Shown here piece by piece: positions 4,458-43,671 of a DNA stretch of 64,000 bases (the stretch's first letter is position 1; every line of letters begins with the position of its first letter). The position numbers and the translations under genes are program-made. The notes below the pieces were generated by a model that was not told the origin of the DNA, searched no databases, and worked only from the letters and a program-made list of their open reading frames with translations. The DNA comes from Bacillota bacterium (GTDB lineage Bacteria > Bacillota > Negativicutes > Sporomusales > CTSoil-080). The stretch lies in assembly GCA_017889725.1 (NCBI GenBank), contig JAGGAE010000007.1, forward strand, positions 3,860-67,859, given 5' to 3'.

Positions 4458-4749
4458 ACTACAAATCCTCCTAGTGTGAAAATAAAAATAAACTCTTTCA
4501 TCCTGCCGGACGAAAGAGCTCTTTCGTGGTACCACCATGCTTCCCGGCCTTCCCTTTACGGGACACACCGGCTTAAACGCCTGTAACGGGGCTTTCCGGT
4601 TGCACCTACTCCTTCTTCAGTACAACAGCTCCGGGATGACCTTCCGCCTCCGAACACTGTGACGCCTTTCAGCCAAGGGCCTCTTCTCTAAAACAGTCGC
4701 TCGGAGCGTACTCTTCCCATCTTTGCTTATACCATATGCAAATAGTATT
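4458..4749 (-). promoter_or_regulatory. T-box leader (valine specifier) controlling valS
   Basis: On the minus strand: T-box motif GGTGGTACCACG (4525-4536); terminator stem CTCTTTC..GAAAGAG (4493-4518) followed by a T-run; alternative pairing of the T-box sequence with the 5' half of the terminator. Stem I elements AGAGA and GAAGAGTA are present. Candidate specifier GUC followed by A lies at 4638-4640. Confidence 0.85.
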
Positions 4750-13234: not shown

Positions 13235-13539
13235 TGTGCACACCTCCTATAACTATCGCCGTTTCTAAAATAACCCCAACCCTTAGACCAAATTCAATAA
13301 TGCTACACAGATAGTTTTTCCGTTCCGCCGGAAGGTAGGCCCACTTTTCCTGCTTACTATACCAGTTTCCGTATTCTCAGCCCTATCATTCCTCATTGTT
13401 AAAATTTTGTAAAAAAATATTTACCATTTTTTTCTATTTATGCAGGGATTTTCTGGAATTAATGGAATATATTTGTTGACCGGTCAAAGAAAAACAAAAA
13501 CAAACGTATTTCAAACAGAAAAGGGAAGGAAGGTTGGGA

Positions 13540-16054
13540 ATGAAGAAAAAACTTCTTATCGGCAGCATTACGACAGCTGCCTTATTAGGCCTAGCTCCTC
13601 TACCAGCATTTGCCTATGATACAATGTCAGCTACATATAACGGAGCTACGGTCGAATCCATGATTGACGCAGTCGTCTACGTAGATGGAGACAGCACAAG
13701 CAGCTATACGGCTGATGGTCTCACGATAACGTCTTCGACCGATAACACCTCTGGCGTATATGCTAAAAACGGTGCCACTGTAACACTATCCAATGTATCG
13801 ATTACTACCAGCGGCAATGATAGTACTGGGTATACTTGTCAATTGAACGGTGGCTCCGGGCTGACTGACGCCTTAGGCTCCCAGTATGGCCTTGATGCTG
13901 CAGTATATGCTAACAACGGCGGCACAATAACCATTACCGGAGACTCGTCAATAACTACCAGTGGCCTTATTGCGAATGGCGTATATGCCACCTATGACGG
14001 AACCATCTATGTAACCGGCACCTCGGATAATCATATTACGATAGATTGCACCGGATTAAACGCTCACGGGGTGGATACAACCTATGGCGGTACTGTATAT
14101 CTTACTTACGTGGATGTCACCACTTCAGGCGCCCATGCGTCAGGGATTGCTACAGACTTTGGCGGTGGCAGTGTCTACGTGGATAATTGTACTGTGAATG
14201 TGACTGGCTCAAAATCTGCGGGTATTTATTCTTGCGGATACGGTGACGGTTATATCTATGTCACGGATTCCACTGTTGTTTCCGAACTAGATGCAGGGTT
14301 GGCGGTGGCATCAGCCGGCTGGCTTGAAGTTTACAATTCCTCCATTACAGGGGTAAATGCACTTAGCGTAATGTTCAGCGGCGACTCTACCGACGAAACC
14401 GATCCCATTATCATTGACGGTAGTTCGCTCACATCAACGTCAACCACCGAAGGCGCGATTATTTGGAGAAACGGTAACAGCACGGTTACTTTACAAAATG
14501 GGACGACAGTTTCATCCGCAAGTGGGATCTTGGCGGAAGCTGGAGACTTCTTTGGCTCTGACCCCAGTACGGCGACTCTGGAATTGATTAACGAAACACT
14601 AACCCAAGGTTACGAATTGCTTGCCGACAGCGGCAGCACGCTAGCTACCCTGTTGGAAGAAGGCACCACTTTTACCGGCTGGACAAGCGGGGATGTATCT
14701 ATGTCTGTTGACTCTACCAGTACATGGAATGTCAGCGCCGATTCAACTGTTACAAGTCTTACTAACAACGGAACTGTAAATCTTTTGTATTCCAACGGCA
14801 CCTATTATTCCATTACCGACTCCGGGGATTTATCCGGCAGCGGCACCTTCAATATGAATATCGATCTCAGCGACACCTCCCTGCTTAACACAATCACCGT
14901 CGACGGCACTACCAGCGGTACTTATGCGATTTACTTTACCGGGCAAAACGCCGCTTACTTAGCGTCACACTCCCTTACCAGCCCGATATTGGTACTCTCC
15001 AGTGGCTCCAGTACCGCCACAGTTACTGGCGGCGGAGACTTTGGCGCATATCGCTGGTCTATAGCCAGTGGTTCAACCTTATCCTCCAGCTATAGTAGTT
15101 CCGACTACTATCTTTACAATACATATACTCCTTCCAATCCTGCCTATGCTGCTATCGCCACCAGCGCATCCAACGTTGCCGCCTGGTACGGCGAATTAAA
15201 TGAGATGCGAATTAAATGAGATTGGAAACCATATGAGCGAACTGCGTACGACCAGTCAATACAACGACGATTTCTGGTCCCGGATCTATTCGAACAAATT
15301 CAAGGTAAAACCGAATGACGGACAATCCTTTAACGAAGTAATGGGTGGTTTTGAAGTAGGTAAAGATAATGCCAGTTCCTTTGATGGCGGCAAGCAAGTT
15401 ACCGGGTTCCTCGCTGGCGGAGGCAAAGCGGACAACTCCTTCAGCACCGGCGGCTCAGGCACTGTCGACAGCTACTATGCAGCAGCTTACAGCAGTTGGA
15501 TTAAGAATGACGGCTCTTACTTCGATCTCATCGGCAAATACAATTCCTTCAGCAATAAATTCTCGGCAACACTGTACGGTAGCAGCATTACCGACACCGC
15601 CGACTACCATAGCAACGGCTTTGGCCTGTCGGCGCAAATCGGCAAACGCCTAGAACAAGGCAATGGTGTCTTCTTCGAGCCGCAAGCCGCCTTATCCGCC
15701 CTATGGTCCGGTTCGGCGAACTACACCAGCACAAATGGTCTGGCTATTAGTTTACCTAGTTCTTCCACACTGCAATTCAAGCTGGGAGGTACTTTCGGAA
15801 AGAAAACAACTATTAACGGAGTCAGCCAACAGGTTTACGGAAAGCTTGCCTGGGCACAGAACTTCTCTAACAGCAACGATATTACCATTGATGGAGCGAC
15901 TTTCGATACCAGTCTAAAAGGCAGCCAAGTGGTCGCCGGTTTAGGTTTCATTCAGGAAGTCGGTAGCCATGAAATTTACATTAATCTAGAAAAATCCTGG
16001 GGGAGCGCACTTAACTATTATGGAGGTAACCTCGGTTACCGTTGGAAATTCTAA
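13540..16054 (+). pseudogene. autotransporter (signal peptide, Thr/Ser/Gly-rich passenger, C-terminal beta-barrel), frameshifted by a 16-nt tandem duplication
   Basis: Signal peptide MKKKLLIGSITTAALLGLAPLPAFA. The repetitive passenger ends in WYGELNEM then stops. The next frame continues ELNEIGNHMSELRTTSQYNDDFWSRIY into a barrel ending in YRWKF (C-terminal aromatic residue). Removing one repeat copy restores a single frame. Confidence 0.8.
15192..15223 (+). repeat. 16-nt tandem duplication (cgaattaaatgagatg / cgaattaaatgagatt) inside the autotransporter linker
   Basis: Read directly: the two adjacent copies are identical at 15 of 16 positions. 16 nt gives a +1 frameshift. Confidence 0.9.
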
Positions 16055-18047: not shown

Positions 18048-18665
18048 CTATTTTAGCAAAATATGTTTAATAACGTCAAGTAACTCATTTCGGCCGCTGC
18101 CATTTACTGCCGAATATATCAGCGGTTCCTGCTCAGGCAGAAGCTTCAATTGGTTTCGTATAATACCTACATTTTTTTTTACAGCCATGCGGGAAATTTT
18201 ATCTGCCTTGGTACAAAGAATCAGCACCGGCACACCGAGTTCTCTTAAATTATTATACGCCTCTATATCACTGGCCATTGGCGAGTGCCGAATATCAATC
18301 AATTGACAAACAAGCGCAAGGCGGTCTGATCCTGACAAATATTCATCAATAAATTTGCTCCACTGACGCCGGTTACCCCTCCCTGTCCGGGCATACCCAT
18401 AGCCGGGTAAGTCTACCAGCCAAAACTCCTGGCGTTCGGTTTCATCGAGTTTCACCGCTACCGAGTAGAAATTCAGCGTCTGAGTCTTCCCAGGAGTTCC
18501 GCTGATACGGGCCAACCCCCCGTGACGGCATAGTGAGTTTATCAAGGAGGATTTTCCGACATTAGACCTTCCGATAAAAGCAATTTCCGGCATATCTCCT
18601 TCCGGATACTGATCGACTCTTACGGCGGAAGCCATATAGCGCGCATACAATACATTTATAGTCAT
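18048..18665 (-). CDS. engB: ribosome biogenesis GTP-binding protein EngB/YsxC
   Basis: G1 [13 protein letters not shown]3 DLPGYGY, G4 TKADK. Conserved position after lon. Confidence 0.9.
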
Positions 18666-20980
18666 GAGTCGGTCACCAAAGCGGTTTTCAGCACTTCATC
18701 CATGTGTTCGACAAGTAAAAATTCCAGACTGCGTTTGACATTGGTCGGAATCTCATCCAAATCACGTTTGTTTTCCTGCGGCAATATGACTTTTTGAATT
18801 CCGGCGCGATGAGCGGCAAGTACCTTCTCTTTTATACCGCCAACAGGCAATACCCTTCCGCGCAAGGTAATTTCTCCCGTCATGGCGATATTATTGCGAA
18901 CCGGTTTGCCGGTTAGCGCAGAAATTACTGCGGTTGCCATAGTAATACCTGCCGACGGACCGTCTTTAGGTATGGCTCCTTCCGGTAAATGGACGTGAAT
19001 ATCACTTTTTTCATGAAATTCAGCATCTATGTTTAATTCTTTGGCTTTACTACGAATGTAGCTAAATCCGGCTTGCGCCGATTCCTGCATTACTTCCCCC
19101 AGCTGGCCGGTAAGTGTGAGCTTGCCTTTGCCCTTCATAGTCGATACTTCCACCGCCAATACATCCCCGCCTACTTCAGTCCATGCCAATCCGGTAGCAA
19201 CACCTACTTCACTGGTACGCTCGGCCTGCCCATGACGGTATTTGGGAGCACCGAGGAAGGTATGCAGATTCTGGGCAGTTATTTTAACTGCTTTGCGCTT
19301 TTCCTGGACGATTTGGCGCGCAACTTTACGGCACAAAGTTGCAAAACTGCGCTCCAGGTTACGCACACCGGCTTCCCGGGTATAGTCGCGAATTACTTTT
19401 TGAACAGTTCCTTCGGATAGTACAATCTGCTCTTCCGTAAGACCATGCTCACGAATTTGTTTCGGTATCAAATAACGCTTAGCAATCTGTACTTTTTCTT
19501 CTTCGGTATAGCCTGCAATGTTAATAATCTCCATGCGATCCAGCAGCGGGCGGGGAATATTATGCATCGCGTTCGCCGTTACAATCCAAAGTACGCGAGA
19601 AAGGTCAAACGGCAATTCAATATAATGATCACTGAACGTATTATTTTGTTCAGGGTCTAGTACTTCAAGAAGCGCTGCGGACGGATCCCCTCGAAAATCA
19701 GCACTCATTTTGTCGATCTCATCCAGGAGAAAGACTGGGTTACGTGAACCGGCTGTACGCATTCCTTGCAGCACACGGCCCGGTAACGCGCCAACATAAG
19801 TCCGGCGATGACCGCGAATTTCAGCTTCATCCCTCACGCCGCCTAAAGATACTCGAACAAACTTACGTTCCATGGAACGGGCAATAGAGCGAGCCAAAGA
19901 AGTTTTACCTACTCCAGGCGGGCCTACCAGGCAGATAATCGGCCCTTTCATTTTTGCCGTCAGTTTTCGGATCGAAAGATACTCGAGTATCCTCTCTTTC
20001 ACCTTTTCCAATCCGTAGTGATCTTCTTCTAAAACCGCCTCAGCACTGGTTATATCTAATCGATCAGTAGTCTCTTTCGACCAGGGCAGAGCCAGCAGCC
20101 AGTCTAGATATGTACGAATGACTGCACTTTCGGCCACCATCGGCGGCATTTTTTCCAGCCGGTCGATTTCTTTTTGAATTTTTTCGGCAACGTCTTTGGA
20201 TAATTCCTGCTCCTTCATTTTCTGCCGATATTCATCGACTTCCGCCGTGCGGTCTTCTTTATCCCCAAGTTCTTTTTGAATAGCCTTTAACTGTTCCCTC
20301 AGATAATATTCTTTTTGGGTTTTTTCCATCTGTTTGCGAACCCGGACATTGATCTTTTTCTCTAATTCGAGAATTTCCATTTCCCTGCCAAGAATATCAC
20401 AAAGCTTTTCCAGCCGTTCTTTAGTTCCAACGGCATCCAGTAATTGCTGCTTATCTTCAATTTTTAACGAAAGATGACTGGCAATAAGATCGGTGAGTCT
20501 GCCTGGTTCTTCGACCACCACAACCGACACCAGCGTCTCAGACGGAATTTTCTTGCTGAGTTTGACCCATTGTTCAAATTGGTGGATGACGGTTCTGGTA
20601 AGCGCCTCCACTTCTGAAGTCTTTTCGCCGAGTTCACGGTATTCTTCAATTTCAACCATATAAAACGGGTCTTGTTCCAAATAGTTGACTATTTTTGCAC
20701 GATGTAAACCTTCCACCAGTACGCGGATGGTCCCTCCTGGAAGTTTTAAAAGCTGTTTAATCTCAACAACGGTGCCAACGGAGAATATATCGTCCGGTTC
20801 CGGTTTATCATTCTGGGCATCCCGTTGGGTTGCCAGCATAATTTCGCGTTCGTGTACCATCGCTTCTTCCAGCGCACTAATCGACTTTTCCCGACCCACA
20901 TCGAGATGAATAATCATATATGGAAAAACTAAAATGCCCCTAAGCGGCAATAGCGGTATATTCCTTGTTGCCTTAGCCAT
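18662..20980 (-). CDS. lon: ATP-dependent protease Lon (LonA)
   Basis: 772 aa. LON N-domain, Walker [10 protein letters not shown], and proteolytic PKDGPSAG with catalytic Ser. Confidence 0.95.
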
Positions 20981-21226: not shown

Positions 21227-22912
21227 TTAAGCTTTAATGCCAGCCGCCGTTAATAAGTCGGGCGGTGAAGTGAATAACTCCAATCGTCGGACATCATTGA
21301 GCTTGACAAGAGCATTCTCGAAGACTGCCGACAGTGTTTCCACGGCAACCACTTCAATGCCGGCATCTTTATACATTTCCTGCCAATTTTCTTTGGGAAT
21401 AATGACTTTGTGTGCCCCTGCCTGCTTGGCTGCCGCAATTTTAGCCGTTACCCCGCCTACCGGTTTCACAAAGCCGCGGATGGACATTTCTCCGGTCATA
21501 ACCACGGTATTATCCACCGGAATATTGTTTACACCCGAATAAATTGCTGTAGCGACGGTAATGCCGGCAGAAGGCCCGTCAATAGGTCCTCCACCTGGGA
21601 AGTTTACATGTACATCATATTGGGAAAAATCAATGCCAAACTGGCTGGTCAAAACGGTAAGTACATTATCTAACGACCCTTTAGCCATACTTTTACGCCG
21701 CATGGTGCGTCCCGGCGTGCCGATTTCTTCTTCTTCGACCACCCCGGTAATTCTGACTATACCTTTACCTTGCGGATTAGGTCGTACAGAAGCCTCAATT
21801 TCAATAGTCGTACCGATATTCGCCCCATATACCGCTAACCCGTTAACAAATCCCACCTGCGGCTTCCCTGTAATCTTCTTTTCCGGACGCGGATTGTATT
21901 GGCCAAAGTTTACTACCCATTCCACATCAGCAACAGTAATTTGCGGACGATTGTCATTAAGCACCAGTCCTGCGGCAATTTGCACGACATTGACAGCTTC
22001 ACGCCCGTTTGTGGCATAGCGCTTAATAACTTCGACCGCCCCATCGTCAATACCAACGTTGACTTTGCGCGCTGCATTCATAGAAATTAACCCGATTTCA
22101 TCCGGCAATAAGGGCCGAAAGAATATCTCTACACATCTTGACCGAATAGCCGGCGAGATATCCTGCGGCATGCAGGTTGTTGCCCCAATAAGCCGAAAAT
22201 CGGCCGGTAACCCGTTTTGAAAAATATCGTGAATATGTGTGGGTATGTTTAAATCTTCACTGCTATAGTACGAGCTTTCCAAAAATACTTTACGGTCCTC
22301 CAGCACTTTCAATAGTTTATTCATTTGTACAGGGTGAAGTTCGCCAATTTCGTCGATAAATAATACTCCGCCATGAGCTTTTGTTACTGCCCCAGGCTTA
22401 GGCTGCGGAATGCCTGCAATGCCAAGCGGCCCAGCCCCTTGATAAATAGGATCATGGACAGTGCCTATCAATGGATCGGCAATTCCCCGTTCATCAAACC
22501 GCGCTGTTGTGGCATCGAGCTCGATAAACTTAGCGTCCCCGTTAAATGGCGACAGCGAATTGAGTTTTGCTTCTTCCAGCACTAATCTAGCGGTAGCCGT
22601 CTTACCCACTCCAGGGGGCCCATATACAATAACGTGTTGAGGATTGGGTCCGCACAATGCCGCCCTGAGCGCTTTCAGCCCCTCTTCCTGGCCTACGATC
22701 TCACGAAAGGTATTTGGTCGCGTTCTTTCTGAAAGCGGCTCTGTTAATGATATTTCGCGCAGTCTTTGCAACTTATCCATTTCCTTTTTGGATTCCCGTT
22801 CCACCGCCACTCGGGTACCTTGTTGTGAGCGGAGAAGATTCCAGAAATAGAGCCCAATGACGATGGCGAAAAAAAACTGGATCAAAGTAATCAAATTTAC
22901 GGCGTAATCCAC
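21227..22912 (-). CDS. lonB: membrane-anchored Lon-like protease LonB (sporulation-type)
   Basis: 561 aa. N-terminal [34 protein letters not shown]. Near-collinear with Bacillus LonB and in the clpX-lonB-lon position. Confidence 0.85.
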   Translation of the reverse strand: MDYAVNLITLIQFFFAIVIGLYFWNLLRSQQGTRVAVERESKKEMDKLQRLREISLTEPLSERTRPNTFREIVGQEEGLKALRAALCGPNPQHVIVYGPPGVGKTATARLVLEEAKLNSLSPFNGDAKFIELDATTARFDERGIADPLIGTVHDPIYQGAGPLGIAGIPQPKPGAVTKAHGGVLFIDEIGELHPVQMNKLLKVLEDRKVFLESSYYSSEDLNIPTHIHDIFQNGLPADFRLIGATTCMPQDISPAIRSRCVEIFFRPLLPDEIGLISMNAARKVNVGIDDGAVEVIKRYATNGREAVNVVQIAAGLVLNDNRPQITVADVEWVVNFGQYNPRPEKKITGKPQVGFVNGLAVYGANIGTTIEIEASVRPNPQGKGIVRITGVVEEEEIGTPGRTMRRKSMAKGSLDNVLTVLTSQFGIDFSQYDVHVNFPGGGPIDGPSAGITVATAIYSGVNNIPVDNTVVMTGEMSIRGFVKPVGGVTAKIAAAKQAGAHKVIIPKENWQEMYKDAGIEVVAVETLSAVFENALVKLNDVRRLELFTSPPDLLTAAGIKA

Positions 22913-26493: not shown

Positions 26494-26568
26494 TGGAGCG
26501 GAAAACGAGATTCGAACTCGCGACCCTCGCCTTGGCAAGGCGATGCTCTACCGCTGAGCTATTTCCGC
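26494..26568 (-). tRNA. tRNA-Gly (anticodon GCC), CCA encoded
   Basis: Reverse complement is GCGGAAATAGCTCAGCGGTAGAGCATCGCCTTGCCAAGGCGAGGGTCGCGAGTTCGAATCTCGTTTTCCGCTCCA. It folds as a cloverleaf with anticodon loop TTGCCAA and a GTTCGAATC T-loop. Confidence 0.93.
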
Positions 26569-26744
26569 ATCAAATTATATTACATCTAAGACATTAATAA
26601 TATATAACATATTTCCAGTGTTGTCAACATAATACGCCTAATACGCCTTTTTCATCATTGTTTGTGGAGTATGATCATTTTATAGCGGCACCCCTTCCCC
26701 ACATGCAGCATATCATGTAAAAAATAATCTAAGGGGGGCTGGTT

Positions 26745-28037
26745 TTGTATTATCGGCTGCAAAATTACTGTAAGCTGGTGCGGGGGGCAAAACGAGGAGC
26801 TATTTACAACCTGCAGACCGGCAAGGTACACTCGATAAATCACGGAGCCTTAGAACTGCTTACTGCCTGCAACGCCCAACAGCTGGAGGATTTTCTTGAT
26901 TTACAAGCTGATGAGGACAAAGCCTATGCAGACTTTCTTCATCGTTTAACAGAAGTTGGTCTCGGTTCTTTTTTTATTAATGAACCGACAAAAGGCAACG
27001 AACCTCTCCCCTCCCCGCAGGCGGCGAAGCTTGATTTTTTATGGCTGGAACTTACCAGCGACTGCAACAATCAATGTCTGCATTGTTACGCAACGAGCGG
27101 CCCGTGCACAAACACCGATTGTGTTCCTCATGAAAGATGGCTGTCTTTACTTACAGAAGCCCGAGCGGCAGGAGCAACCGCCGTTCAGCTCATCGGCGGT
27201 GAACCACTTCTTTATAAAGGCTGGCGGGAACTGATCGAAAAAGCCGGCGAGGAAAAATACGACTTTATTGAAGTTTTCAGTAATGCCACTCTAGTAACAG
27301 AGGATGATATTGCTTTTTTAAAGCAACACCATGTTAATTTTGCGACAACCATTTACGCTGATAACGCAGAAGTCCACGATGCGGTCACATTAAACCCAGG
27401 TAGTTTTGATAAAACCCTCACTGCAGCAAAAAAGATATTAGCCGCCGGCATTCCTTTGCGCATCGCATCCATAATAATGAAAGCCAATGAACATCAAGCG
27501 GAAAATATTATGCAGTTATGCGCCAGCCTCGGAGTTGAAGTTACCCCGCCGGATGTGGTGCGACCGACAGGACGCGGAGATGATGCCGGTCTACTGCCTA
27601 GAGCCTATGCCAAACAGCCCGTCAAACCGCCTTTCTATACAGATCCTTTTTCTTTCGCAAAAGCCCATCAACAGCACAGCTGTTTATGTGGCAAAATTGC
27701 GATTACCTCAAGCGGCGATGTTATCCCCTGTATTTTCGCCCGCAACCAAATCTCGGGCAACATATTAAGCACCCCCCTTGCTGAAGTACTTAACGGTCCA
27801 ATATTAAAATCCTGCTGGCAAACCACTAAAGACGAAATAGAAAAGTGCAAGGATTGCGAGTATCGCTATGCATGTACCGACTGCCGCCCGCTTGCTCAAG
27901 GCTCCGATCCTCAAAAGCGCTGGCTGGCATGTTCTGCGGAATGCTCTTATAATCCCCACACAGGAGAATGGAAGGAGGCCGATTTATGTCCGAAGGCAGC
28001 AAGTACAAACCACCCAAATGGCAGCGTCCCGAATTAA
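26745..28037 (+). CDS. radical SAM / SPASM-domain peptide-modifying enzyme with an N-terminal RRE-like (PqqD-like) region
   Basis: 430 aa, TTG start after AAGGGGGG. CxxxCxxC (CNNQCLHC) at about residue 107, GGEPLL. SPASM cysteines CLCGK...GDVIPC and CKDCEYRYACTDC. The first ~100 aa precede the rSAM core, as in RiPP recognition elements. Confidence 0.85.
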   Translation: MYYRLQNYCKLVRGAKRGAIYNLQTGKVHSINHGALELLTACNAQQLEDFLDLQADEDKAYADFLHRLTEVGLGSFFINEPTKGNEPLPSPQAAKLDFLWLELTSDCNNQCLHCYATSGPCTNTDCVPHERWLSLLTEARAAGATAVQLIGGEPLLYKGWRELIEKAGEEKYDFIEVFSNATLVTEDDIAFLKQHHVNFATTIYADNAEVHDAVTLNPGSFDKTLTAAKKILAAGIPLRIASIIMKANEHQAENIMQLCASLGVEVTPPDVVRPTGRGDDAGLLPRAYAKQPVKPPFYTDPFSFAKAHQQHSCLCGKIAITSSGDVIPCIFARNQISGNILSTPLAEVLNGPILKSCWQTTKDEIEKCKDCEYRYACTDCRPLAQGSDPQKRWLACSAECSYNPHTGEWKEADLCPKAASTNHPNGSVPN

Positions 28038-28273
28038 CAGGGCATACTCATACTAAGCAAGGTAAAGTTAGCGGCAGAGGCCCCATTGGCTGCCCGCCTA
28101 CAGCAACTCCATGTCCGCCAAATTGTCCTCCGGTATATCCCCCTCCGCCTTGCTGCTATCCCGAAAGCGGCCATGTTCAGTGTAACCCGGCTACAGTATG
28201 CCGCCCCCGTTGCCATCCTTCTTATCCGCCGCCTTACTGTTATCCAAGCAGCGTCTGCCCCCCGACAAGGTAA
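27986..28273 (+). CDS. Cys/Pro-rich 95-aa peptide, candidate RiPP precursor (35-aa leader-like part, 60-aa core-like part)
   Basis: ATG lies 7 nt after GGAAGGAGG and overlaps the rSAM gene by 52 nt in another frame. Sequence MSEGSKYKPPKWQRPELTGHTHTKQGKVSGRGPIG-CPPTATPCPPNCPPVYPPPPCCYPESGHVQCNPATVCRPRCHPSYPPPYCYPSSVCPPTR. A hairpin follows the stop. Confidence 0.6.
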   Translation: MSEGSKYKPPKWQRPELTGHTHTKQGKVSGRGPIGCPPTATPCPPNCPPVYPPPPCCYPESGHVQCNPATVCRPRCHPSYPPPYCYPSSVCPPTR

Positions 28274-28281
28274 TAATGCAA

Positions 28282-28319
28282 AAAGACCGGCTAACAAGTT
28301 TCCTTGCTAGCCGGCCTTT
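28282..28319. terminator. hairpin shared by the convergent Cys/Pro-peptide gene and eno
   Basis: Stem aaagaccggctaacaag / cttgctagccggccttt (2 mismatches). A T-run is present on the minus (eno) side. Confidence 0.6.
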
Positions 28320-28324
28320 ATCGT

Positions 28325-31158
<2,834 letters not shown>

Positions 31159-36114: not shown

Positions 36115-37509
36115 CTAATATCTCCGCCGTTTGCTTGATGCCGGAATTCCTAATTCCTCCCGGTATTTGGCCACGGTTCTCCGGGAAAGGGTTATCCCCT
36201 TCTTTTCCATATATTCTGTGATAGACTGATCACTCAGAGGCCGAAGCGGGTCTTCCCCTGCTACCATTTCTTTGATTTGCCATTTGACGGTTGAAGCCGA
36301 CAGCGCCTGCCCATCCGCGCCTTGCAAGCCTGCAGTAAAAAAGTTTCGAAGGGCTACTATGCCATGTGGGGTATCCGCATATTTATTGGCGATGGCCCGG
36401 CTGACTGTAGATTCGTGAATGCCCAGTTCATTGGCCACTTCTTTCATAGTCAGCGGCTTTAAGTAATGCGGCCCCATATCAAAGTACGCCTGCTGTAAAG
36501 AAATCAGGGTTTTTACTACATTATATAAAGTACGCCGCCGCTGTTCAATGCTTTTTATCAACCATACCGCGGCGTTTATGCGCCCTTCCACGAATTTCTT
36601 GGCTCCGTGGTCAACATCCCGCGCAATGTGCCGATAAAACGGGTTAATGGTCAGATGCGGTACTTGGTTGTCATTAATTATAATAACATATTCCCCATTG
36701 ACCCGTTCGATGGTTACATCAGGAACGATGTAAGTGGGTTGGTCAGCGCCATGAAAGGCACGCCCCGGTTTGGGTTCAAGAGTTCGGATTACATCAACCG
36801 CTTTTTGCACCTGCAGTGGAGTGTAGCCGGTTTTTTCGGCAATCGTTTTTAAATGGCCGGTACCTACTTCATCTAAATGTTCTCTAATTATAGACAGCAC
36901 TAAGTCATCGGTAATGCCCTTCTGCTCAGCTTGTATTTCCAGACATTCCTTTAAGCTTCTGGCACCCACCCCCGGCGGGTCAAACGTTTGGATGACTTGT
37001 AAGACTTCTGCCACTTGCTGTTCACTTAACCCCAACTTAGCTGCCGCTTCAGCGACTGTGCCGGACAAGTAACCATTATCGTCAATACAGCCGATAAGAT
37101 ATTTCCCTGTTGTACATTGTTGAGCCGTTAAGCCACTAAGATGCATCTGGAATTCCAGATGTTCTTCTAATGTGGAAGCCACCGATACATAGGCCGAAAG
37201 CGGCATTTTTTCTTCCGCAGTCCGCATGGTATATCCCGCATCGCTTCCTTCATTAAAATACTCCGCCCAATCCATGTATTCCTGAAGCTGATCGTTTGGT
37301 GCATCTTCTCCTGTATCTTCCGCGGTATCTGAAGTATTCGCATCGTTTTTTTCTTCTATCTCCAATACCGGATTTTCCAACAATTCTTGTTCGACCATTT
37401 CAGCCAGTTCCATTGAGGAAAGCTGCAAGATCGCTATGGCTTGTTGTAATTGCGGAGTCATAATGAGTTTTTGGTTCATCTCCAACTTCAAACCATAGTC
37501 CATCCGCAT
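36115..37509 (-). CDS. rpoN: RNA polymerase sigma-54 factor
   Basis: 464 aa. N-terminal Gln/Leu-rich region and C-terminal RpoN box ARRTVAKYRE. Confidence 0.93.
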   Translation of the reverse strand: MRMDYGLKLEMNQKLIMTPQLQQAIAILQLSSMELAEMVEQELLENPVLEIEEKNDANTSDTAEDTGEDAPNDQLQEYMDWAEYFNEGSDAGYTMRTAEEKMPLSAYVSVASTLEEHLEFQMHLSGLTAQQCTTGKYLIGCIDDNGYLSGTVAEAAAKLGLSEQQVAEVLQVIQTFDPPGVGARSLKECLEIQAEQKGITDDLVLSIIREHLDEVGTGHLKTIAEKTGYTPLQVQKAVDVIRTLEPKPGRAFHGADQPTYIVPDVTIERVNGEYVIIINDNQVPHLTINPFYRHIARDVDHGAKKFVEGRINAAVWLIKSIEQRRRTLYNVVKTLISLQQAYFDMGPHYLKPLTMKEVANELGIHESTVSRAIANKYADTPHGIVALRNFFTAGLQGADGQALSASTVKWQIKEMVAGEDPLRPLSDQSITEYMEKKGITLSRRTVAKYREELGIPASSKRRRY

Positions 37510-37562
37510 TTCTTATCCCCCTCCTCTTTTTACTCCACTATATGTCAATGCAGTTATTTTCG

Positions 37563-38573
37563 CTAACAAATTCTAGGCAATTGGTCCCCGGGCAGCATGT
37601 CTAAAAGCCGTACTCCTCCAACAAGAGTCCGGAGTCCAACCTGGCCTTTGGGGTCTTTAGTTACCTGTCCTATTACTTTGGCGTTACGGCCATACACATG
37701 CTGTTTAAGTATCGCCAGTGCTTTATCTGTATGGACTGATTCGACAAATATGACGGCTTTACCTTCATTTGCGAGATATAAGGGATCATATCCGAGCATG
37801 TCACATACTGCCATTACTTCAGGGTTAACCGGTATGTCCATTTCGTTGATTATGATACCTGCCTGCGCCTGGGACGCTACTTCATTGAGTACGGTAGCAA
37901 GTCCGCCGCGGGTCGGATCACGCAGTACGGCAATCTCCGGCACATTGTACAAAAGTTCCTCAATCATACCATTTAGCGGGGCGCAATCACTGGTTATATT
38001 AACCGGTAGCGTAAGCCCATGACGTTCGGCCATTATGGTTACGGCATGATCGCCAAGACTGCCGGTAAGGATAATATTTTGCCCGGAACAGGCCCTTTGC
38101 GGCGAAATGTTTACTCCCTCTATCAAGGCTCCCACGCCCGCCGTATTAATATAAATGCCGTCAGCCGCCCCCTTTTCCACCACTTTAGTGTCCCCTGTCA
38201 CTATAGTTACGTTTGCCTGAAATGCCGCCTGCCGCATAGAATCAACAACGCGCAAAAGATCCGACTGGGGAAACCCTTCTTCAATAATAAACCCGGCGGA
38301 AAGATATAGGGCTTTCGCCCCCGTCATGGCTAAATCATTTACTGTACCGCATACCGCCAGTTTGCCAATGTCCCCGCCTGCAAAAAATAAGGGCTTTACT
38401 ACATGAGAGTCTGTTGTAAAGGCCAATTTTGCCCCATTCACTGTCACTTTGGCCCCATCATGCATTTCATCGAGAGCGGGATTGGAAAACGCCGGTCGCA
38501 TGACTTCTTCAATTAGCTTTTGGCTGAGTTTTCCCCCGCTGCCATGCGCTAGAAGGATTTTTTCCTCTTTCAT
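37563..38573 (-). CDS. hypE: hydrogenase maturation protein HypE
   Basis: AIR-synthase-like fold and C-terminal PRIC motif. The start overlaps the hypD stop (ATGA). Confidence 0.9.
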   Translation of the reverse strand: MKEEKILLAHGSGGKLSQKLIEEVMRPAFSNPALDEMHDGAKVTVNGAKLAFTTDSHVVKPLFFAGGDIGKLAVCGTVNDLAMTGAKALYLSAGFIIEEGFPQSDLLRVVDSMRQAAFQANVTIVTGDTKVVEKGAADGIYINTAGVGALIEGVNISPQRACSGQNIILTGSLGDHAVTIMAERHGLTLPVNITSDCAPLNGMIEELLYNVPEIAVLRDPTRGGLATVLNEVASQAQAGIIINEMDIPVNPEVMAVCDMLGYDPLYLANEGKAVIFVESVHTDKALAILKQHVYGRNAKVIGQVTKDPKGQVGLRTLVGGVRLLDMLPGDQLPRIC

Positions 38574-39664
38574 ATCTGCCACCTCCCCGTGCCGTACCGA
38601 TACCACGCAGCACACGCTCCCTCAACAGAGACCATGCAGGAACCGACTGGCTGCTCCGGTCGGCAGATATCACCGAACAAGGAACATTCAAAAGGTTTGG
38701 CGACACCTCTTAATACCTCGCCGCAGCGACAACCGCGCGGTTCTACCGTGGGCTCTACTTCGACAGGTATACTTTCTTCAGCATCAAACCGGCGGTATTT
38801 GGCGTTAACCTTAAGTCCTGAAAAGTTTATAAGACCGATTCCCCGCCACACGGCATCGTCTTCCTCATACACTTGGGAGAGTATATTCCTGGCGGCAACA
38901 TTTCCTTCCGGCTTTACAATACGCCGATACTGGTTTTCTACAGCAGCTTTTCCTTCTCTGATTTGCTTAACCAAAAAATATACGGCCTGTAGTATGTCAA
39001 GGGCTTCAAACCCGGCAATAACAGCCGGGACGGAAAACCGTTCACTTAAAAAAGCATATGCTTGTTCTCCAATAATGGCACTGACATGCCCCGGCAGCAG
39101 AAGTCCGTCCAGAGTAATATCATCGGCGGCACATAAAGCATTAAGGGCCGGAGGCACTCGTTTATGCGCCGATAACACATAAAAGTTTCTCAGCATTTTT
39201 CTCTCAGCTTCTAATACGGTTGCTGCAGCTGTTGGAGCTGTGGTTTCAAAGCCGACAGCTAAAAAGATTACTTTTTTATCAAGGTTACCGGCAGCAATGT
39301 CCAGGCTTTCCAGCGGCGAGTATACAACACGAATATCTCTTCCTTCCGCCTTTTCCGCAGCCAGACTGGAAGTTGAACCCGGCACTTTCAGCATATCGCC
39401 GAAGGTTGTAATAATAGTGTCCTTTTGACGGCTGTAGGCAATGGCCATGTCTAAATAGTCGTTAGGGGTTACACACACCGGACAGCCCGGGCCGCTAATA
39501 AGTTCAACCTCACAAGGCAGGAGCTGCCGGATGCCGGATTTAAAAATCGCCACAGTGTGCGTACCGCATACTTCCATTAGCCTGAGCGGCCGATTGGTCA
39601 GCCGCCGGATTTCTTTGACAAAAAATTCGGCGCTTCGCTTCTGTTCTTCGTTACTGATCTTCAT
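38570..39664 (-). CDS. hypD: hydrogenase maturation protein HypD
   Basis: 364 aa with CGTHT, GPGCPVCV and GFETT motifs. Confidence 0.92.
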   Translation of the reverse strand: MKISNEEQKRSAEFFVKEIRRLTNRPLRLMEVCGTHTVAIFKSGIRQLLPCEVELISGPGCPVCVTPNDYLDMAIAYSRQKDTIITTFGDMLKVPGSTSSLAAEKAEGRDIRVVYSPLESLDIAAGNLDKKVIFLAVGFETTAPTAAATVLEAERKMLRNFYVLSAHKRVPPALNALCAADDITLDGLLLPGHVSAIIGEQAYAFLSERFSVPAVIAGFEALDILQAVYFLVKQIREGKAAVENQYRRIVKPEGNVAARNILSQVYEEDDAVWRGIGLINFSGLKVNAKYRRFDAEESIPVEVEPTVEPRGCRCGEVLRGVAKPFECSLFGDICRPEQPVGSCMVSVEGACAAWYRYGTGRWQI

Positions 39665-39875
39665 ATTGCGCCAGCTCCTTTAACAGCTCCATGGTCCGTT
39701 CCGCTTCTTCCTGATCGACAAGCTGAATGGCAAAACCGGCATGAACCAGTACGTAGTCACCCACTTTCGCTTCGGGCACCAGCATAATGCTGGCTTGCCG
39801 GGTAACACCGTTAATTTCGATAGTAGCCAGCATATCCTGGAGTTTTATAATTTGTGCCGGTACCGCTAAACACAT
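39651..39875 (-). CDS. hypC: hydrogenase maturation chaperone HypC/HupF
   Basis: 74 aa beginning MCLAVP, the essential N-terminal Cys. Confidence 0.9.
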   Translation of the reverse strand: MCLAVPAQIIKLQDMLATIEINGVTRQASIMLVPEAKVGDYVLVHAGFAIQLVDQEEAERTMELLKELAQYEDQ

Positions 39876-42041
39876 CGTCCTTCACTCCTTTTCCTGGCTA
39901 CTGCAATCTGCCCCAATGAGAGGCCGCCGTCATTGGGAGGAACCATTTTCGGTAGAAGTACAATAAAATCTTTTTCGAGCTGGGTGACGACCAGACTTAA
40001 TAATGTCACGTTTTGAAATACTCCGCCACTCAATACAACTTTATTTACACCCGTCATTCTTCCTAGCCTACCGACAGTCTCAATCATGGCGGCGGCCACA
40101 GTGGCATGAAAGTCGGCCGCCAGTGATCTATAATCCGCCCCTGCTTCCATTCTGTTGACTAAGGCTTCGAAAGCAGGTGAAAAATCAAGTTCCAGAGGGG
40201 TACCTCCCTGTATTTGGTATGGAAGCGCCTTGCCTTGAATTCCGGCAGCTGCCAATTCGAGTTCAACGGCGGCTTGACCTTCATAATGAATATGAGTACG
40301 TATCCCTAAAATAGCCGCTGCTATATCAAATAAACGCCCGGCTCCAGCCGAAAGAGGGGTATTGATTCCCTTTTCCGCCGCCTGAAGCACCAGCTGCCAA
40401 CCTTCCTGTAGACGGGAAGTTAACGGGACAGCCCGGTTAATAAAGTCCGGTCCGTACAGGCTGTATAACTGCCATGCCGCCAATCGCCACGGTTCCTGGA
40501 TGGCTCTTGCACCACCCGGCAGTTTCAAATAGGCACAGTGAGCCAGCCGTATATAGTCACTACAGTCGGCGAGGAAAAACTCCCCGCCCCATATATTGCC
40601 ATCAGTTCCATAGCCGGTTCCGTCAAAGGCAACACCAATAACTTTTTCATCCATACCGTGCTCCGCCAATACAGCGGCGATATGGGCATGATGATGCTGG
40701 ACGCCAACAACTGGCAATCCCAATTCCCGGGCGTATTGTGTTGATAGATAGCCTGGATGAAGATCACAGGCCACTAACTCCGGCGTAATGTTAAGCATTT
40801 CCTGGTAATGACGTATCGAATCACGATAACTATTATAAGTTGCTTGGTTTTCCAAATCACCGGTATGAGCACTGATAAAAGCCATATTATCAGCAGTAAG
40901 ACAGAAAGTATTTTTTAGCTCTCCACCACAGGCGAGTATTTTAGGGCCTGACGTAGCTAACTTAATAGGTGCCGGGGCCAAGCCCCGCCCGCGCCGCAAC
41001 CAGTACGGCTTTTCCTGAAAAGTGCGGCAAACCGAATCGTCAGCCCGACAATAAATCCTCCGGTTGTGCACCAAAAAATAATCTGCAATCGTGCTCAGCC
41101 TGTCAAATGCATCGTCATCTTCATAAACAATGGGTTCATCACTGATATTTCCGCTTGTCATAACCAAGATATCTTCTGGTCTTAAAAGGAAATAGTGAAC
41201 CGGGGCATAAGGCAGCATAACGCCGAGATACGGATTTCCCGGGGCGACGGCCTCTGCTAAAGAGTATTCCGCCGATTTTTTTACAAGAACAATCGGCTTA
41301 ACCGAACCCGTCAAAAGCTGGGCTTCCTCTTTAGTAACCACACAATGCCGTTTGAGAATATCAAGGCTTCCGCCCATTACGGCAAAAGGCTTATCTTCCC
41401 GAAGCTTACGTCGCGGCAATCAGTTGGCGGGCAGTCTCTATAGGCTCTCCTGACTGGATTTCCTTTTGTTCATTAAATAAACGATAGGACGGGCCGCACT
41501 CCGGGCAAGCGTTCGGCTGAGCATGAAACCGCCGGTTGCTCGGATCCTGATACTCTTCTCGGCATGTACTGCACATGGTAAACTCAGCCATAGTGGTTTG
41601 CTCACGATCATATGGCGTACCTGTAATAATGGTATACCTGGGACCACAGTTGGTACAATTGGTAAACGGGTAGCGATACCTGCGGTCTTTGGGGTCGGTA
41701 ATCTCCCTCTGGCAGTCGGCGCAAGTTGCTACATCCGGCGAAACAAAAACTTGCCGTTCTGCTTTTGCTTCGCTTTTACGGATAATAAAATCGGATTCCC
41801 CCTTGAGTTCACAGGGATCAGCCCAAATTTCCTCGAGAACGGCTACCGGCGGAACCTCAGTTTTAAGCGCCTGTACAAAAGACTCAACCGCGAAAGGAAC
41901 GCCCTCTATTTCTATTATTACTCCGCTTCCGATATTTTGGACCCAGCCCGCCAACGCAAAACGCCTAGCCAGATTATATACGAAAGGACGAAACCCTACC
42001 CCTTGCACGATACCTGTAACTCCGATTCTCATGCGCTTCAT
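39866..42041 (-). pseudogene. hypF: carbamoyltransferase HypF, disrupted by an internal deletion plus frameshift (or assembly error)
   Basis: The N-terminal ORF (acylphosphatase GIVQGVGFRPFVY plus two CxxC-N18-CxxC zinc fingers) stops at 41406 after ARQLIAAT. The next frame starts RRKLREDKPFAVM and runs through the YrdC-like remainder and the Kae1-like domain. The conserved KGLGGFHL.CDA block expected between them is missing. Confidence 0.75.
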
Positions 42042-43530: not shown

Positions 43531-43671
43531 CTACTTCGCGCAGACTTGGTTGCCTACGGTACAAGATGTTTTACACGCCGATTGGCAGGAAGCCTGACAT
43601 TCCCCACACCCGCCGGTATGCAACGTATTTTGCAGATTTCCTTTATTGATTGTTGTAATATGTTTCGCCAT
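43531..43671 (-). CDS. scfA: six-cysteine peptide SCIFF (ranthipeptide precursor)
   Basis: 46 aa, missed by the ORF track. MAKHITTINKGNLQNTLHTGGCGECQASCQSACKTSCTVGNQVCAK carries the family signature GGCGECQxSCQSACKTSCTVGNQ. GGAGGG lies upstream. Confidence 0.92.
   Translation of the reverse strand: MAKHITTINKGNLQNTLHTGGCGECQASCQSACKTSCTVGNQVCAK

Follow-up and report, generated by a model that had tools for sequence, protein, structure and literature searches.

The locus lies in a window of 64,000 nucleotides, by which we mean the whole stretch of DNA that was analysed, and comprises two genes and a terminator on the + strand, where all features given below lie unless stated otherwise. The first gene (26745–28037), identified from its Pfam domains, encodes a radical SAM/SPASM peptide maturase of 430 aa. 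Its TTG start follows by 6 nt a Shine-Dalgarno sequence, AAGGGGGG (26731–26738), read directly in the sequence, and is supported by the alignment, in which the position of MYYRL is the start of the homologues too. The protein matches the Pfam families Radical_SAM (E = 4e-16, 60 bits for a cut-off of 29.5) and SPASM (E = 1e-7, 32.3 bits for a cut-off of 21.5). The cysteines of its cluster motif CNNQCLHC, of the CxxxCxxC type (C107, C111 and C114; 27063–27086), are invariant in alignment A1, as is the SAM-binding GGE motif GGEPLL (residues 151–156). The SPASM domain (27681–27944), delimited with Pfam and the alignment, contains seven cysteines (C313, C329, C368, C371, C377, C380 and C400), all invariant among 21 homologues, and their spacing (C313-x10-G-x4-C329; C368-x2-C371-x5-C377-x2-C380; C400) agrees with the seven-cysteine pattern used for comparison, CX9-15GX4C ... 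CX2CX5CX2-3C ... C. The N-terminal ~80 residues (26745–26984) are predicted to form an RRE-like, precursor-recognition domain: the AF2 model places strands at residues 2–5, 9–13, 17–22 and 28–32 and helices at 33–44 and 56–70 (pLDDT 73–92), and 16 residues of this region are invariant among the 21 homologues. The recognition element that the preliminary description had placed here thus finds support in the model and in profile alignments, which bring residue 20 onto residue 18 of CteB and also onto residue 14 of ScfB, and none in the Pfam PqqD model, which gave no match on the N-terminus at E <= 1.

The second gene (27986–28273) encodes a CxP-repeat precursor or small protein of 95 aa. Its first 52 nt coincide, in a different frame, with the end of the enzyme gene, and it has its own Shine-Dalgarno sequence within that gene, GGAAGGAGG (27970–27978), read directly 7 nt before the ATG at 27986. 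The leader-like part contains KPPKWQRPEL (28007–28036), already singled out in the preliminary description, which corresponds to a motif conserved throughout the family (consensus [RK]PKW[ED]xPE[MIL]; alignments A2 and A5). The 60-aa core (28091–28270) holds 10 Cys and 21 Pro and is built of nine C-x-P units (CPP x4, CYP x2, CNP, CRP and CHP). Pro stands at +2 of nine of the ten Cys, more often than chance predicts for a Pro content of 35% (binomial p = 5e-4). Reading of the sequence confirmed all the features of enzyme and ORF that had been listed beforehand. An intrinsic terminator follows (28282–28331), composed of a hairpin (28282–28319) and a U-rich tract; the computed folding energy of -19.4 kcal/mol (z = -3.07) was equalled by none of 200 shuffled sequences. 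Since the terminator points towards the 3' end of eno, it may act in both directions. A generic promoter/terminator scan missed both this terminator, found by RNA folding, and the sporulation-type promoter described below, found by comparison of loci.

Protein searches returned more than 750 homologues of the enzyme. Every NCBIfam model remained under its cut-off, including the best one, grasp-with-spasm TIGR04193 (100.7 bits for a cut-off of 175), which covers the SPASM part only and whose ATP-grasp partner has no conserved counterpart here. The genuine SCIFF maturase ScfB of the same window served as positive control for the library and was recognized by TIGR03974 with 610.9 bits for a cut-off of 425. 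Neither Pfam nor NCBIfam matched the peptides to any family, in line with the earlier view that the core is not that of any described precursor family recognized at the time. By sequence and by fold, the nearest solved relatives of the enzyme are SkfB (E = 4.6e-24; Foldseek rank 1), SuiB (the second-best structural neighbour) and CteB, all of them leader-dependent maturases, and the models of the thioether formers StsB, SkfB and AlbA are among its nearest NCBIfam peptide-maturase models by score. Two matches to the precursors were rejected as effects of repeats and composition: that of the elgicin lantibiotic model, touched by four precursors (best E 4.6e-7) and, in a re-test of ten, by one (via a CWPRQC repeat, with 12.7 bits for a cut-off of 40), and that of streptosactin (E 0.02).

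SCIFF/ScfB, CteB and PapB, the ranthipeptide systems, resemble the cassette in their RRE-rSAM-SPASM maturase with a seven-Cys SPASM domain, their small Cys-rich substrate, their two-gene organization without protease or exporter and their broad, vertical distribution in anaerobic Firmicutes; moreover, the enzyme is 21% identical to the window's own ScfB over the full length, and CteB is among its top structural matches. However, it stays under the cut-offs of the PapB model and of TIGR03974, the latter not being among its best 25 families. SCIFF peptides, a true one of which is encoded elsewhere in the window (43531–43671, - strand), typically have six Cys within 45 C-terminal residues, compared with 10 Cys, arranged in CxP units, among the 95 aa of the peptide here, and the cassette differs further in its leader motif, in the lack of a conserved Asp/Thr/Asn acceptor and in its sporulation-type promoter. 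The sactipeptide maturases SkfB, AlbA and StsB are related by the matches given above, and SkfB has a link with sporulation physiology as well; yet the enzyme scores far under their cut-offs (72.8 for 300, 61.6 for 850 and 87.7 for 625, respectively), SkfB has a Twitch domain where a full SPASM domain is present here, and sactipeptides have short hairpin cores with few Cys, encoded in operons with exporters, immunity genes and proteases. The CXXX-repeat (TIGR04115), Cys-every-fifth CefB (NF038107) and ACGX-repeat (TIGR04340) systems, which have been defined by bioinformatics, likewise combine an rSAM/SPASM maturase with a short-Cys-repeat peptide, but the ACGX model reached 59.7 bits for a cut-off of 400, the others were outside the best 25 families, the peptides match none of the models, and the repeat rule here is positional (Pro at +2), with a spacing of 3–9 residues. 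Membership in the anSME, SCIFF and grasp-with-spasm families was rejected on the basis of the cut-offs.

A single-sequence protein search with the 95-aa ORF gave zero matches; the word index fails on such a composition, and the comparison was therefore made via the enzyme loci. The test set beforehand was whether a Cys/Pro-rich ORF, in a conserved frame, accompanies homologues of the enzyme, and the answer was clearly positive. A small CxP ORF adjoins the enzyme on the same strand in ~40 of the 52 orthologous loci, whose hosts include Sporomusa, Pelosinus, Propionispora, Anaerospora and Lucifera among others, and dN/dS in the peptide frame is 0.03–0.42 for nine informative pairs. The ORF retains its frame, leader motif and CxP rule over ~40 genomes despite very different nucleotide sequences. 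In the leader motif, [RK]PKW[ED]xPE[MIL]x[DE]W, the residues P, K, W, P and E vary little or not at all, and among 39 family members Pro occupies position +2 of 540 of the 552 Cys (98%), compared with 1–11% for positions +1, +3 or +4. The core had been described as dominated by CPP/YPPP motifs; the signature is instead the strict C-x-P periodicity. Similarly, the order of precursor after maturase with a translational overlap is genuine in the window and is not a family trait, since the overlap is confined to a subclade with a ~15-aa C-terminal tail on the enzyme (the window and loci L001/L016). Elsewhere the two genes are separated by 3–40 nt or the peptide gene lies upstream, the downstream position being that of most loci.

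The precursors have 80–160 aa and 8–29 CxP units, with a spacing between Cys units of 3–9 residues, and their cores (50–120 aa) vary widely in repeat number and sequence, C and P alone being fixed. The residue at +1 is aromatic in ~38% of the units, R, N, P, S and Q being also common, the residue at +3 is Arg in 36%, and Lys is nearly absent from the cores (0.8%). In most members the leader is negatively charged (-5 to -18) and the core positively charged (+5 to +14); the window peptide is atypical, with a basic instead of an acidic leader and few Arg. Cores of Pelosinus and its relatives are arrays of CWPRQQ, CFPRQ and CYPRQ, one large subtype of precursors has a hydrophobic, membrane-anchor-like segment, and Pelosinus genomes carry several precursor copies. 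Extra precursor copies unlinked to the cassette also occur. Two lineages (L015 and L236) have a decayed precursor beside an intact enzyme, and the adjacent precursor is missing at the orthologous enzyme loci L052, L054/L055 and L009. The precursor scan also gave a spurious match, at L238 (S. acidovorans). The only conserved neighbours are tig, clpP and clpX, on the opposite strand, which adjoin the cassette in ~41 loci; given this fixed site, the cassette looks vertically inherited. The neighbourhood comparison revealed no conserved protease, exporter, immunity, regulator, ATP-grasp or WprC-like gene beside it. Judged by its conservation, the 95-aa ORF is a real gene, and enzyme and peptide are a real two-gene unit, conserved across spore-forming Negativicutes and without a curated family, that probably represents an undescribed peptide modification system.

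More distant homologues of the enzyme, at 31–39% identity, occur in Patescibacteria, Clostridia, Deltaproteobacteria and archaea. A CxP-rich ORF adjoins them in 21 of 29 loci, and 194 of the 221 Cys of these peptides (88%) are in CxP, with a leader motif that differs from that of Sporomusaceae; the CxP rule thus tracks the enzyme family. In place of the sporulation-type element, these non-Sporomusaceae loci have TTGACA-17-TATAAT promoters. As some of the lineages do not sporulate (Patescibacteria, archaea), sporulation cannot be the general role of the superfamily. A profile of 28 precursors retrieved four matches among 5.8 billion proteins, all of them 'hypothetical proteins', and an exhaustive profile search of 1.84 billion representative proteins gave 33 clusters. 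The genes of CxP peptides are thus almost never called, which would make a widespread system invisible to standard genome mining. We found no description of the family in the open-access literature, an account in a subscription journal being possible.

A putative sigma-K-type (mother-cell) promoter lies upstream of the enzyme gene (26690–26719), with AC at 26690–26691 followed, after 17 nt, by CATATCATGTA (26709–26719), part of the 12-mer GCATATCATGTA (26708–26719). Its core, AC-17-CATATCAT (26690–26716), has one mismatch in the -10 box. The arrangement AC-N17-CATATTATGTA is near-invariant upstream of the cassette genes and of the unlinked precursor copies, and (a/c)AC(a/c)c-N~15-tGCATATTATGTAnnAAA (AC-17-CATATTAT) occurs in 38 of 42 orthologous loci. 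Within 519 kb of such loci, the 10-mer CATATTATGT was counted 39 times for ~1 expected, every time (39/39) directly upstream of cassette genes. AC and the element keep a fixed spacing of 17 +/- 1 nt, while the start codon follows at variable distances of 36 to 144 nt, as is typical of a promoter. Mother-cell sigma factors have CATATTAT as canonical -10 box, and the -35 element of sigma-K is AC (PMC3789822). The combination of AC at -35, a spacer of 16–17 nt and CATA---TA or CATATTAT at -10, as defined in that study (PMC3789822), is present in the window and in the 38 of 42 loci. The upstream element therefore fits a sigma-K-type mother-cell promoter, as far as a consensus derived from Bacillus and Clostridioides applies. 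A scan of genome contigs for other regulon members with the 18-mer TGCATATTATGTANNAAA was informative in a single case among the matches listed, which were mostly from unrelated genomes: in one Clostridia genome the 18-mer lies 42 nt upstream of spoIIID. All the host genera named above are, as far as is known, endospore formers. A spore-type LonB is also encoded in the window.

We propose, with about even confidence, that the best explanation of these data is a two-gene operon (promoter, enzyme, peptide and terminator) in which a maturase expressed during sporulation cross-links the CxP repeats, most likely via thioethers. The product of the second gene would be the substrate of the enzyme, with an N-terminal leader carrying the docking motif PKW-x-x-PE and a C-terminal C-x-P array. 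The RRE-like domain would bind the leader, and the enzyme would travel along the core, using radical chemistry to modify every CxP unit at its Cys or just beside it. The likeliest product would be one small thioether ring (Cys-S to carbon) per CxP unit, so that a flexible chain rich in Cys and Pro would become a rigid, cross-linked rod free of thiols. Thioether formation is the most likely chemistry as far as distant homology (15–21% identity) can indicate; SPASM enzymes with similar scores, namely AhbD, NirJ, PqqE and SuiB, perform quite different chemistry, the cores have no conserved acceptor residue apart from Pro or the variable x, and we know of no Cys-Pro or Cys-x thioether of the proposed kind. 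In Sporomusaceae, the cassette and the unlinked precursor copies would be transcribed from sigma-K-type promoters in the mother cell, late in sporulation, and the product would be either laid onto the outer layers of the spore or freed at mother-cell lysis. Transcription in the mother cell would make an exporter and a dedicated protease unnecessary. The intracellular or envelope role that had been guessed from the missing protease and exporter gains strength from the sigma-K-type promoter and the fixed chromosomal site. Cys-rich sigma-K proteins of the spore outer layers are known, such as CotY/CotZ in B. subtilis and CdeC/CdeM in C. difficile. The cassette peptide, with its predicted sigma-K-type promoter, would be like them in being Cys-rich, made in the mother cell and devoid of export signals, but it has no sequence similarity to them, and they rely on disulfides for cross-linking and lack a dedicated radical SAM partner; a spore location of the cassette peptide is a proposal of this work.

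A broader reading, put forward tentatively and as less probable than not, is that CxP peptides belong, together with their RRE-rSAM-SPASM partners, to a large superfamily, so far undescribed and spread over Firmicutes, Patescibacteria, Deltaproteobacteria and archaea, whose enzyme modifies each C-x-P in a new way, such as by closing a thioether micro-ring from Cys to Pro (or to x) or by converting Cys serially to formylglycine, and that in Sporomusaceae this system was recruited to the sigma-K regulon for an enzymatically cross-linked spore surface polymer. Should this be true, it would be, to our knowledge, the first radical-SAM-matured protein of the spore envelope. The system, if correctly interpreted, would add a new class to the substrates of radical SAM/SPASM enzymes, one with an unusually clean rule (Pro at +2 of Cys), point to uncatalogued chemistry on a repetitive scaffold suited to enzymology, expose an annotation blind spot caused by CxP-repeat genes, and tie RiPP-type maturation to endospore development in diderm Firmicutes, whose spore envelope biochemistry is, as far as we know, essentially unexplored. 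The sigma-K-type promoter common to the operon and to the scattered extra precursor genes offers a small regulon that is directly testable.

The product might instead be a classical bioactive RiPP, which we consider rather unlikely. The Arg/Pro/Cys-rich cationic core would then be an antimicrobial or signalling peptide, kept inactive by the anionic leader until its release and its cleavage by a non-dedicated protease, with export via an unlinked transporter or mother-cell lysis. The balance of charges between leader and core in most members, which is reminiscent of how propieces work in cationic host-defence peptides, speaks for it, together with the RRE, rSAM, leader and core architecture, the several precursor copies per Pelosinus genome and the fact that SkfB, the nearest solved relative, makes a sporulation-associated killing peptide. 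However, a protease, exporter or immunity gene is not conserved nearby, the constant site beside tig-clpP-clpX suggests vertical inheritance and not an accessory cluster, and long cores with variable repeats in which only C and P are fixed are unlike a defined pharmacophore; the large subtype with a membrane-anchor-like segment also speaks against it.

The conserved element could also serve as operator for a transcription factor dedicated to the cassette, or as a promoter read by a different sigma factor, with vegetative expression (e.g. under metal, redox or envelope stress) of a Cys-rich protein acting as metal or redox buffer; we hold this to be unlikely. The element is an imperfect palindrome (TGCATA-T-TATGTA), and its 13 conserved nt plus AAA make it longer than a -10 box usually is or needs to be, so it could be an operator. 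In addition, the Cys-rich, acid-free cores would be expected to bind soft metals, and the superfamily is found under sigma-A-like promoters in non-sporulating phyla. On the other hand, the fixed AC spacing with a variable distance to the start codon, the exact identity of the family element with the published mother-cell -10 box and its occurrence upstream of spoIIID all favour a promoter of the mother cell, no regulator gene is conserved nearby, and simple metal binding does not explain why each Cys is followed by Pro at +2 or why a radical SAM partner is needed.

We give still less credit to the possibility that the enzyme acts like anSME and oxidizes the Cys of CxP to C-alpha-formylglycine, yielding a poly-aldehyde protein that cross-links to amines of envelope proteins. 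The sulfatase motif recognized by anSME, C-x-P-x-R, has C-x-P at its core, and anSME is itself a SPASM enzyme found among the structural and sequence neighbours; TIGR03942 (cut-off 349) aligns end to end with one distant homologue (67.6 bits), and the invariance of only Cys and Pro(+2) would suit a modification of Cys without partner residue. But anSME ranks under SkfB, SuiB and CteB, its PDB match (E 3e-7) covers the core only, and TIGR03942 is not among the best 25 families of the enzyme. Furthermore, anSMEs act on sulfatases and have neither an RRE nor leader-dependent substrates, whereas an N-terminal domain and a repeat peptide are present here and no sulfatase is; Arg, where it occurs, is at +3 and not at +4, and is missing from most units of the window peptide, and the near absence of Lys from the cores leaves almost no amines to react.

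A cyclophane synthase that bridges Pro by joining an aromatic residue at +1 with Arg at +3 (W/Y/F-P-R), with the Cys left for disulfides or metal binding, is very improbable. It was suggested by the Pelosinus-type arrays, by the structural proximity of SuiB and by WprB, which at WPR motifs connects Trp-C5 with Arg-C-gamma (PMC11851443). Yet WprB has a Twitch domain only and requires a separate WprC (PMC11851443), while the cassette has a full SPASM domain and no WprC-like neighbour. The window peptide has no WPR and a single CxPR unit, which is non-aromatic (CRPR). Since the aromatic and Arg residues are present in little more than a third of the units and the pair invariant across the superfamily is Cys and Pro, WPR cyclophane formation was rejected as family-wide chemistry.

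Finally, a chance or shadow ORF within DNA of low complexity, the real substrate being encoded elsewhere, might be suspected from the extreme composition, from the four matches in 5.8 billion proteins and from the lack of matches in the search with the window ORF itself, but is hardly credible in view of the frame, leader motif and CxP rule conserved over ~40 genomes, dN/dS values well below 1, the strong Shine-Dalgarno sequence of its own and the promoter that the unlinked copies share with the cassette.

The cassette comprises the gene of a radical SAM/SPASM enzyme (430 aa, 26745..28037, + strand), whose TTG start lies 6 nt past AAGGGGGG, and a small ORF (95 aa, 27986..28273, + strand), whose ATG lies 7 nt past GGAAGGAGG; the two genes share 52 nt, read in different frames. 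Radical_SAM and SPASM domains were found in the enzyme (Pfam), together with the motifs CNNQCLHC and GGEPLL and seven SPASM cysteines, while the small ORF encodes a hydrophilic N-terminal part of 35 aa followed by 60 aa with 10 Cys and 21 Pro. These ORFs, motifs and Cys/Pro counts agree with the preliminary description, made from the sequence alone, which had proposed a candidate new RiPP system. The pair ends with a hairpin (28282-28319, fold -19.4 kcal/mol, z = -3.07) and, behind it, a U-rich tract, and is the sole + strand unit amid - strand genes from ~16.1 to 50.6 kb, the gene order being clpX, clpP, tig (-), tRNA-Gly (26494-26568, -), the cassette (+) and eno (-).

None of the NCBIfam models reached its cut-off with the enzyme. 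The top match below cut-off was grasp-with-spasm (100.7 vs 175), limited to the SPASM part, followed by AhbD, TIGR04053, StsB, NirJ2, ScmF and SkfB. The same library recognizes ScfB, the SCIFF maturase encoded in the window (611 vs 425), so this negative result is meaningful. A profile search against solved structures ranked SkfB best (E 4.6e-24), then SuiB, CteB and PqqE, and the alignment with CteB begins at residue 20, thus including the putative recognition domain. In the AF2 model (pLDDT 72) residues 2-70 form four short strands and then helices, and the full-length Foldseek search placed SkfB, SuiB, CteB and TigE at the top. The SPASM domain has the 7-Cys pattern, and the identity with ScfB of the window is 21% end to end. 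In summary, sequence and model point to a leader-dependent radical SAM/SPASM peptide maturase belonging to no named family, whose nearest characterized relatives are mostly thioether formers.

More than 750 homologs of the enzyme were found, the closest of which (53-73% identity) belong to Sporomusa, Pelosinus, Propionispora, Anaerospora, Dendrosporobacter, Lucifera and Methylomusa, as well as to related MAGs and Ruminiclostridium sufflavum. We read the DNA surroundings of 52 orthologs and found a small same-strand ORF directly adjoining the enzyme gene in ~40 of them, the adjacent precursor being missing at a few. It usually lies 3-40 nt downstream of the enzyme gene, whereas it precedes that gene in Anaerospora, Propionispora and the Ruminiclostridium-type clade. 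Pairwise dN/dS in the precursor frame was 0.03-0.42 (nine non-saturated pairs), as expected of a protein-coding ORF under purifying selection. The claimed Cys/Pro-rich ORF is thus retained with its frame conserved, and it is a protein-coding gene genetically coupled to the enzyme. The translational overlap, also pointed out initially, exists in the window but is not a general trait, as it is confined to a subclade whose enzymes have an extra tail of ~15 aa. In ~41 orthologous loci the enzyme gene is divergent from the adjoining tig-clpP-clpX; beyond these genes, no conserved neighbor was found in the orthologous loci, whether protease, transporter or regulator. This fixed site with no other conserved neighbor is more suggestive of a chromosomal function passed on vertically than of a mobile antibiotic cluster.

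All these precursors share the N-terminal leader motif [RK]PKW[ED]xPE[MIL]x[DE]W, of which KPPKWQRPEL, singled out in the preliminary description, is the form found in the window. The motif is followed by a usually acidic linker and a Cys/Pro-rich core, whose repeats diverge strongly among genera: CWPRQQ in Pelosinus, CQPSWSPCRPNQPIG in Sporomusa, CRPCPPSQ in the Ruminiclostridium type and CNPxCRPx in the clade of the window. Among 39 precursors, Pro occupies position +2 of Cys in 540 of 552 cases, compared with 46, 8 and 59 of 552 at positions +1, +3 and +4, respectively; this CxP rule is obeyed by 9 of the 10 Cys of the window peptide (p = 5e-4), which is itself atypical in its basic leader, scarce Arg and many CPP units. 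In most members the negative charge of the leader offsets the positive charge of the core, a balance that fits either self-assembly or a propiece masking a cationic peptide. A large subtype (precursors P0121, P0123, P0125-P0157; locus L022:4613-4897) carries 15-20 hydrophobic, Gly-rich residues (for example LGLGLGLGFGFG and LPLAAIFIAATG) that separate the acidic leader from the CxPR repeats and may serve as a membrane anchor or glycine-zipper.

The CxP peptides have next to no annotation. The precursors matched no Pfam or NCBIfam family, a precursor profile search of 5.8 billion proteins returned four matches, all "hypothetical proteins", and we found no description of the family in the open-access literature. 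When 1.84 billion representatives were searched exhaustively by HMM, 33 precursor clusters emerged, most of them of the subtype with the membrane-anchor-like segment between leader and core. At 31-39% identity, enzyme homologs extend to Patescibacteria, Deltaproteobacteria, Clostridia, Fibrobacteres, Methanosarcinales and Woesearchaeota, and a small same-strand CxP-rich ORF adjoins the enzyme gene in 21 of 29 such distant loci. In these ORFs 194 of 221 Cys obey the rule, and the leader motif is another one (roughly [ED]L[TK]KVT or P-x-I-x-LVT). Since these ORFs accompany the enzyme across phyla, CxP tracks the enzyme family and not the taxon. The distant cassettes of Clostridia MAGs (loci L082, L083, L086, L092 and L094) have acidic CxP cores (CSPCSPD..., CNPDCNPENEE...) and sigma-A-like promoters, and the next ORF at these loci, of 140-180 aa, resembles a GNAT acetyltransferase by eye. 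Distant homologs of other phyla have ordinary TTGACA-17-TATAAT promoters.

When the sequences preceding the first cassette gene were aligned, 38 of 42 Negativicutes loci shared a near-invariant element, (a/c)AC(a/c)c - ~15 nt - tGCATATTATGTA nn AAA, with a constant AC-to-CATA spacing (17 +/- 1 nt) and a variable distance to the start codon (36 to 144 nt). This putative sigma-K-type promoter matches the -10 consensus and the AC at -35 that Saujet et al. give for mother-cell sigma factors and for sigma-K, respectively, and the window has AC-17-CATATCATGTA at 26690-26719. Across 519 kb of these loci the 10-mer CATATTATGT was counted 39 times, vs ~1 expected, each time directly upstream of a cassette gene, and in peptide-first loci the element precedes the peptide gene. 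Extra precursors remote from any radical SAM gene, in Pelosinus genomes and one metagenome contig (L229, L230, L232, L235 and L239/L240 from Pelosinus; L096:4001-4276), are each preceded by their own CAC-N17-CATATTATGTA element; in P. baikalensis a single contig carries one copy at each end, the two being identical. In Wukongibacter baidiensis spoIIID (PF12116, E 8e-43) is preceded, at a distance of 42 nt, by the exact 18-mer TGCATATTATGTAACAAA (L122:7257-7274), with ATA at the -35 position. The window also encodes a spore-type LonB protease (21227-22912, -; TIGR02902, 895.7 bits vs a cut-off of 723), adjoined by lonA (18662-20980), clpX, clpP and tig, which indicates that the source is an endospore former. 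From the conserved element, the satellite copies, the spoIIID match and LonB we infer that in Sporomusaceae the cassette, together with its satellite precursors, makes up a small regulon of sigma-K type with expression in the mother cell. Longer than a -10 box and palindromic in part, the element may act as an operator.

The precursor has decayed in the MAG CTSoil_081, the closest relative of the window: at L015:6230-6440 the remnant reads ATG ... CCC TAG TGG, the stop replacing the Lys of PKW, no Cys is found in the frame beyond it and the region is ~170 nt shorter, with an intact enzyme 73% identical to that of the window. In Sporomusa silvacetica DSM 10669 (L236:2995-3099) the precursor is cut off right after an intact leader (..YKSPKWETPEMSEWDTIEYCCLSFLLI*) despite an intact enzyme; the core has thus been lost a second time, independently, with the enzyme retained.

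The finding is real, a radical SAM/SPASM maturase with a Cys-repeat peptide, and the initial interpretation as a peptide-modifying system is supported and extended. Such a pairing is of a known kind; what sets this one apart is the unusually strict substrate rule, the broad, largely unannotated distribution and an unexpected, probable link to sporulation. We propose that the RRE-like domain would bind PKWxxPE of the leader and that the enzyme would work through the CxP units in succession, the most likely reaction, by homology, being thioether formation between Cys-S and carbon. With Cys and Pro(+2) as the sole invariant residues, the thioether partner would be Pro or the variable x of the unit, a chemistry that would be new. 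Alternatively, Cys itself could be converted, by analogy with formylglycine formation by anSME on C-x-P-x-R. Mother-cell expression would account for the missing exporter and protease; the product would end up on the spore or be released at lysis.

A genuine SCIFF system is also present, with ScfB as the second radical SAM gene of the window (42113-43471, -; TIGR03974, 610.9 bits vs a cut-off of 425) and a 46-aa SCIFF peptide, MAKHITTINKGNLQNTLHTGGCGECQASCQSACKTSCTVGNQVCAK (43531-43671, -). Two separate radical SAM/SPASM peptide systems thus lie within 17 kb. Elsewhere in the window, valyl-tRNA synthetase appears to be split into two ORFs (1924-3702 and 3780-4568, -; 592 + 262 aa, 78-nt gap); this essential gene may carry a frameshift or an in-frame stop, or the sequence may be in error. 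At 13534-16054 (+) two ORFs overlap by 20 nt, one of 561 aa that matches nothing in Pfam and one of 284 aa that is an autotransporter beta-domain; a frameshift may have split what is one gene of an outer-membrane autotransporter, which fits a diderm Negativicute. In the stretch 36115-41419 (-) the sigma-54 gene (36115-37509) is followed by a hydrogenase maturation cluster with HypD (38570-39664) and a HypF-like protein (39866-41419), both - strand and assigned by Pfam match, and a gene at 37563-38615 (-) that is hypE-like, judging from its AIR-synthase domains and position.
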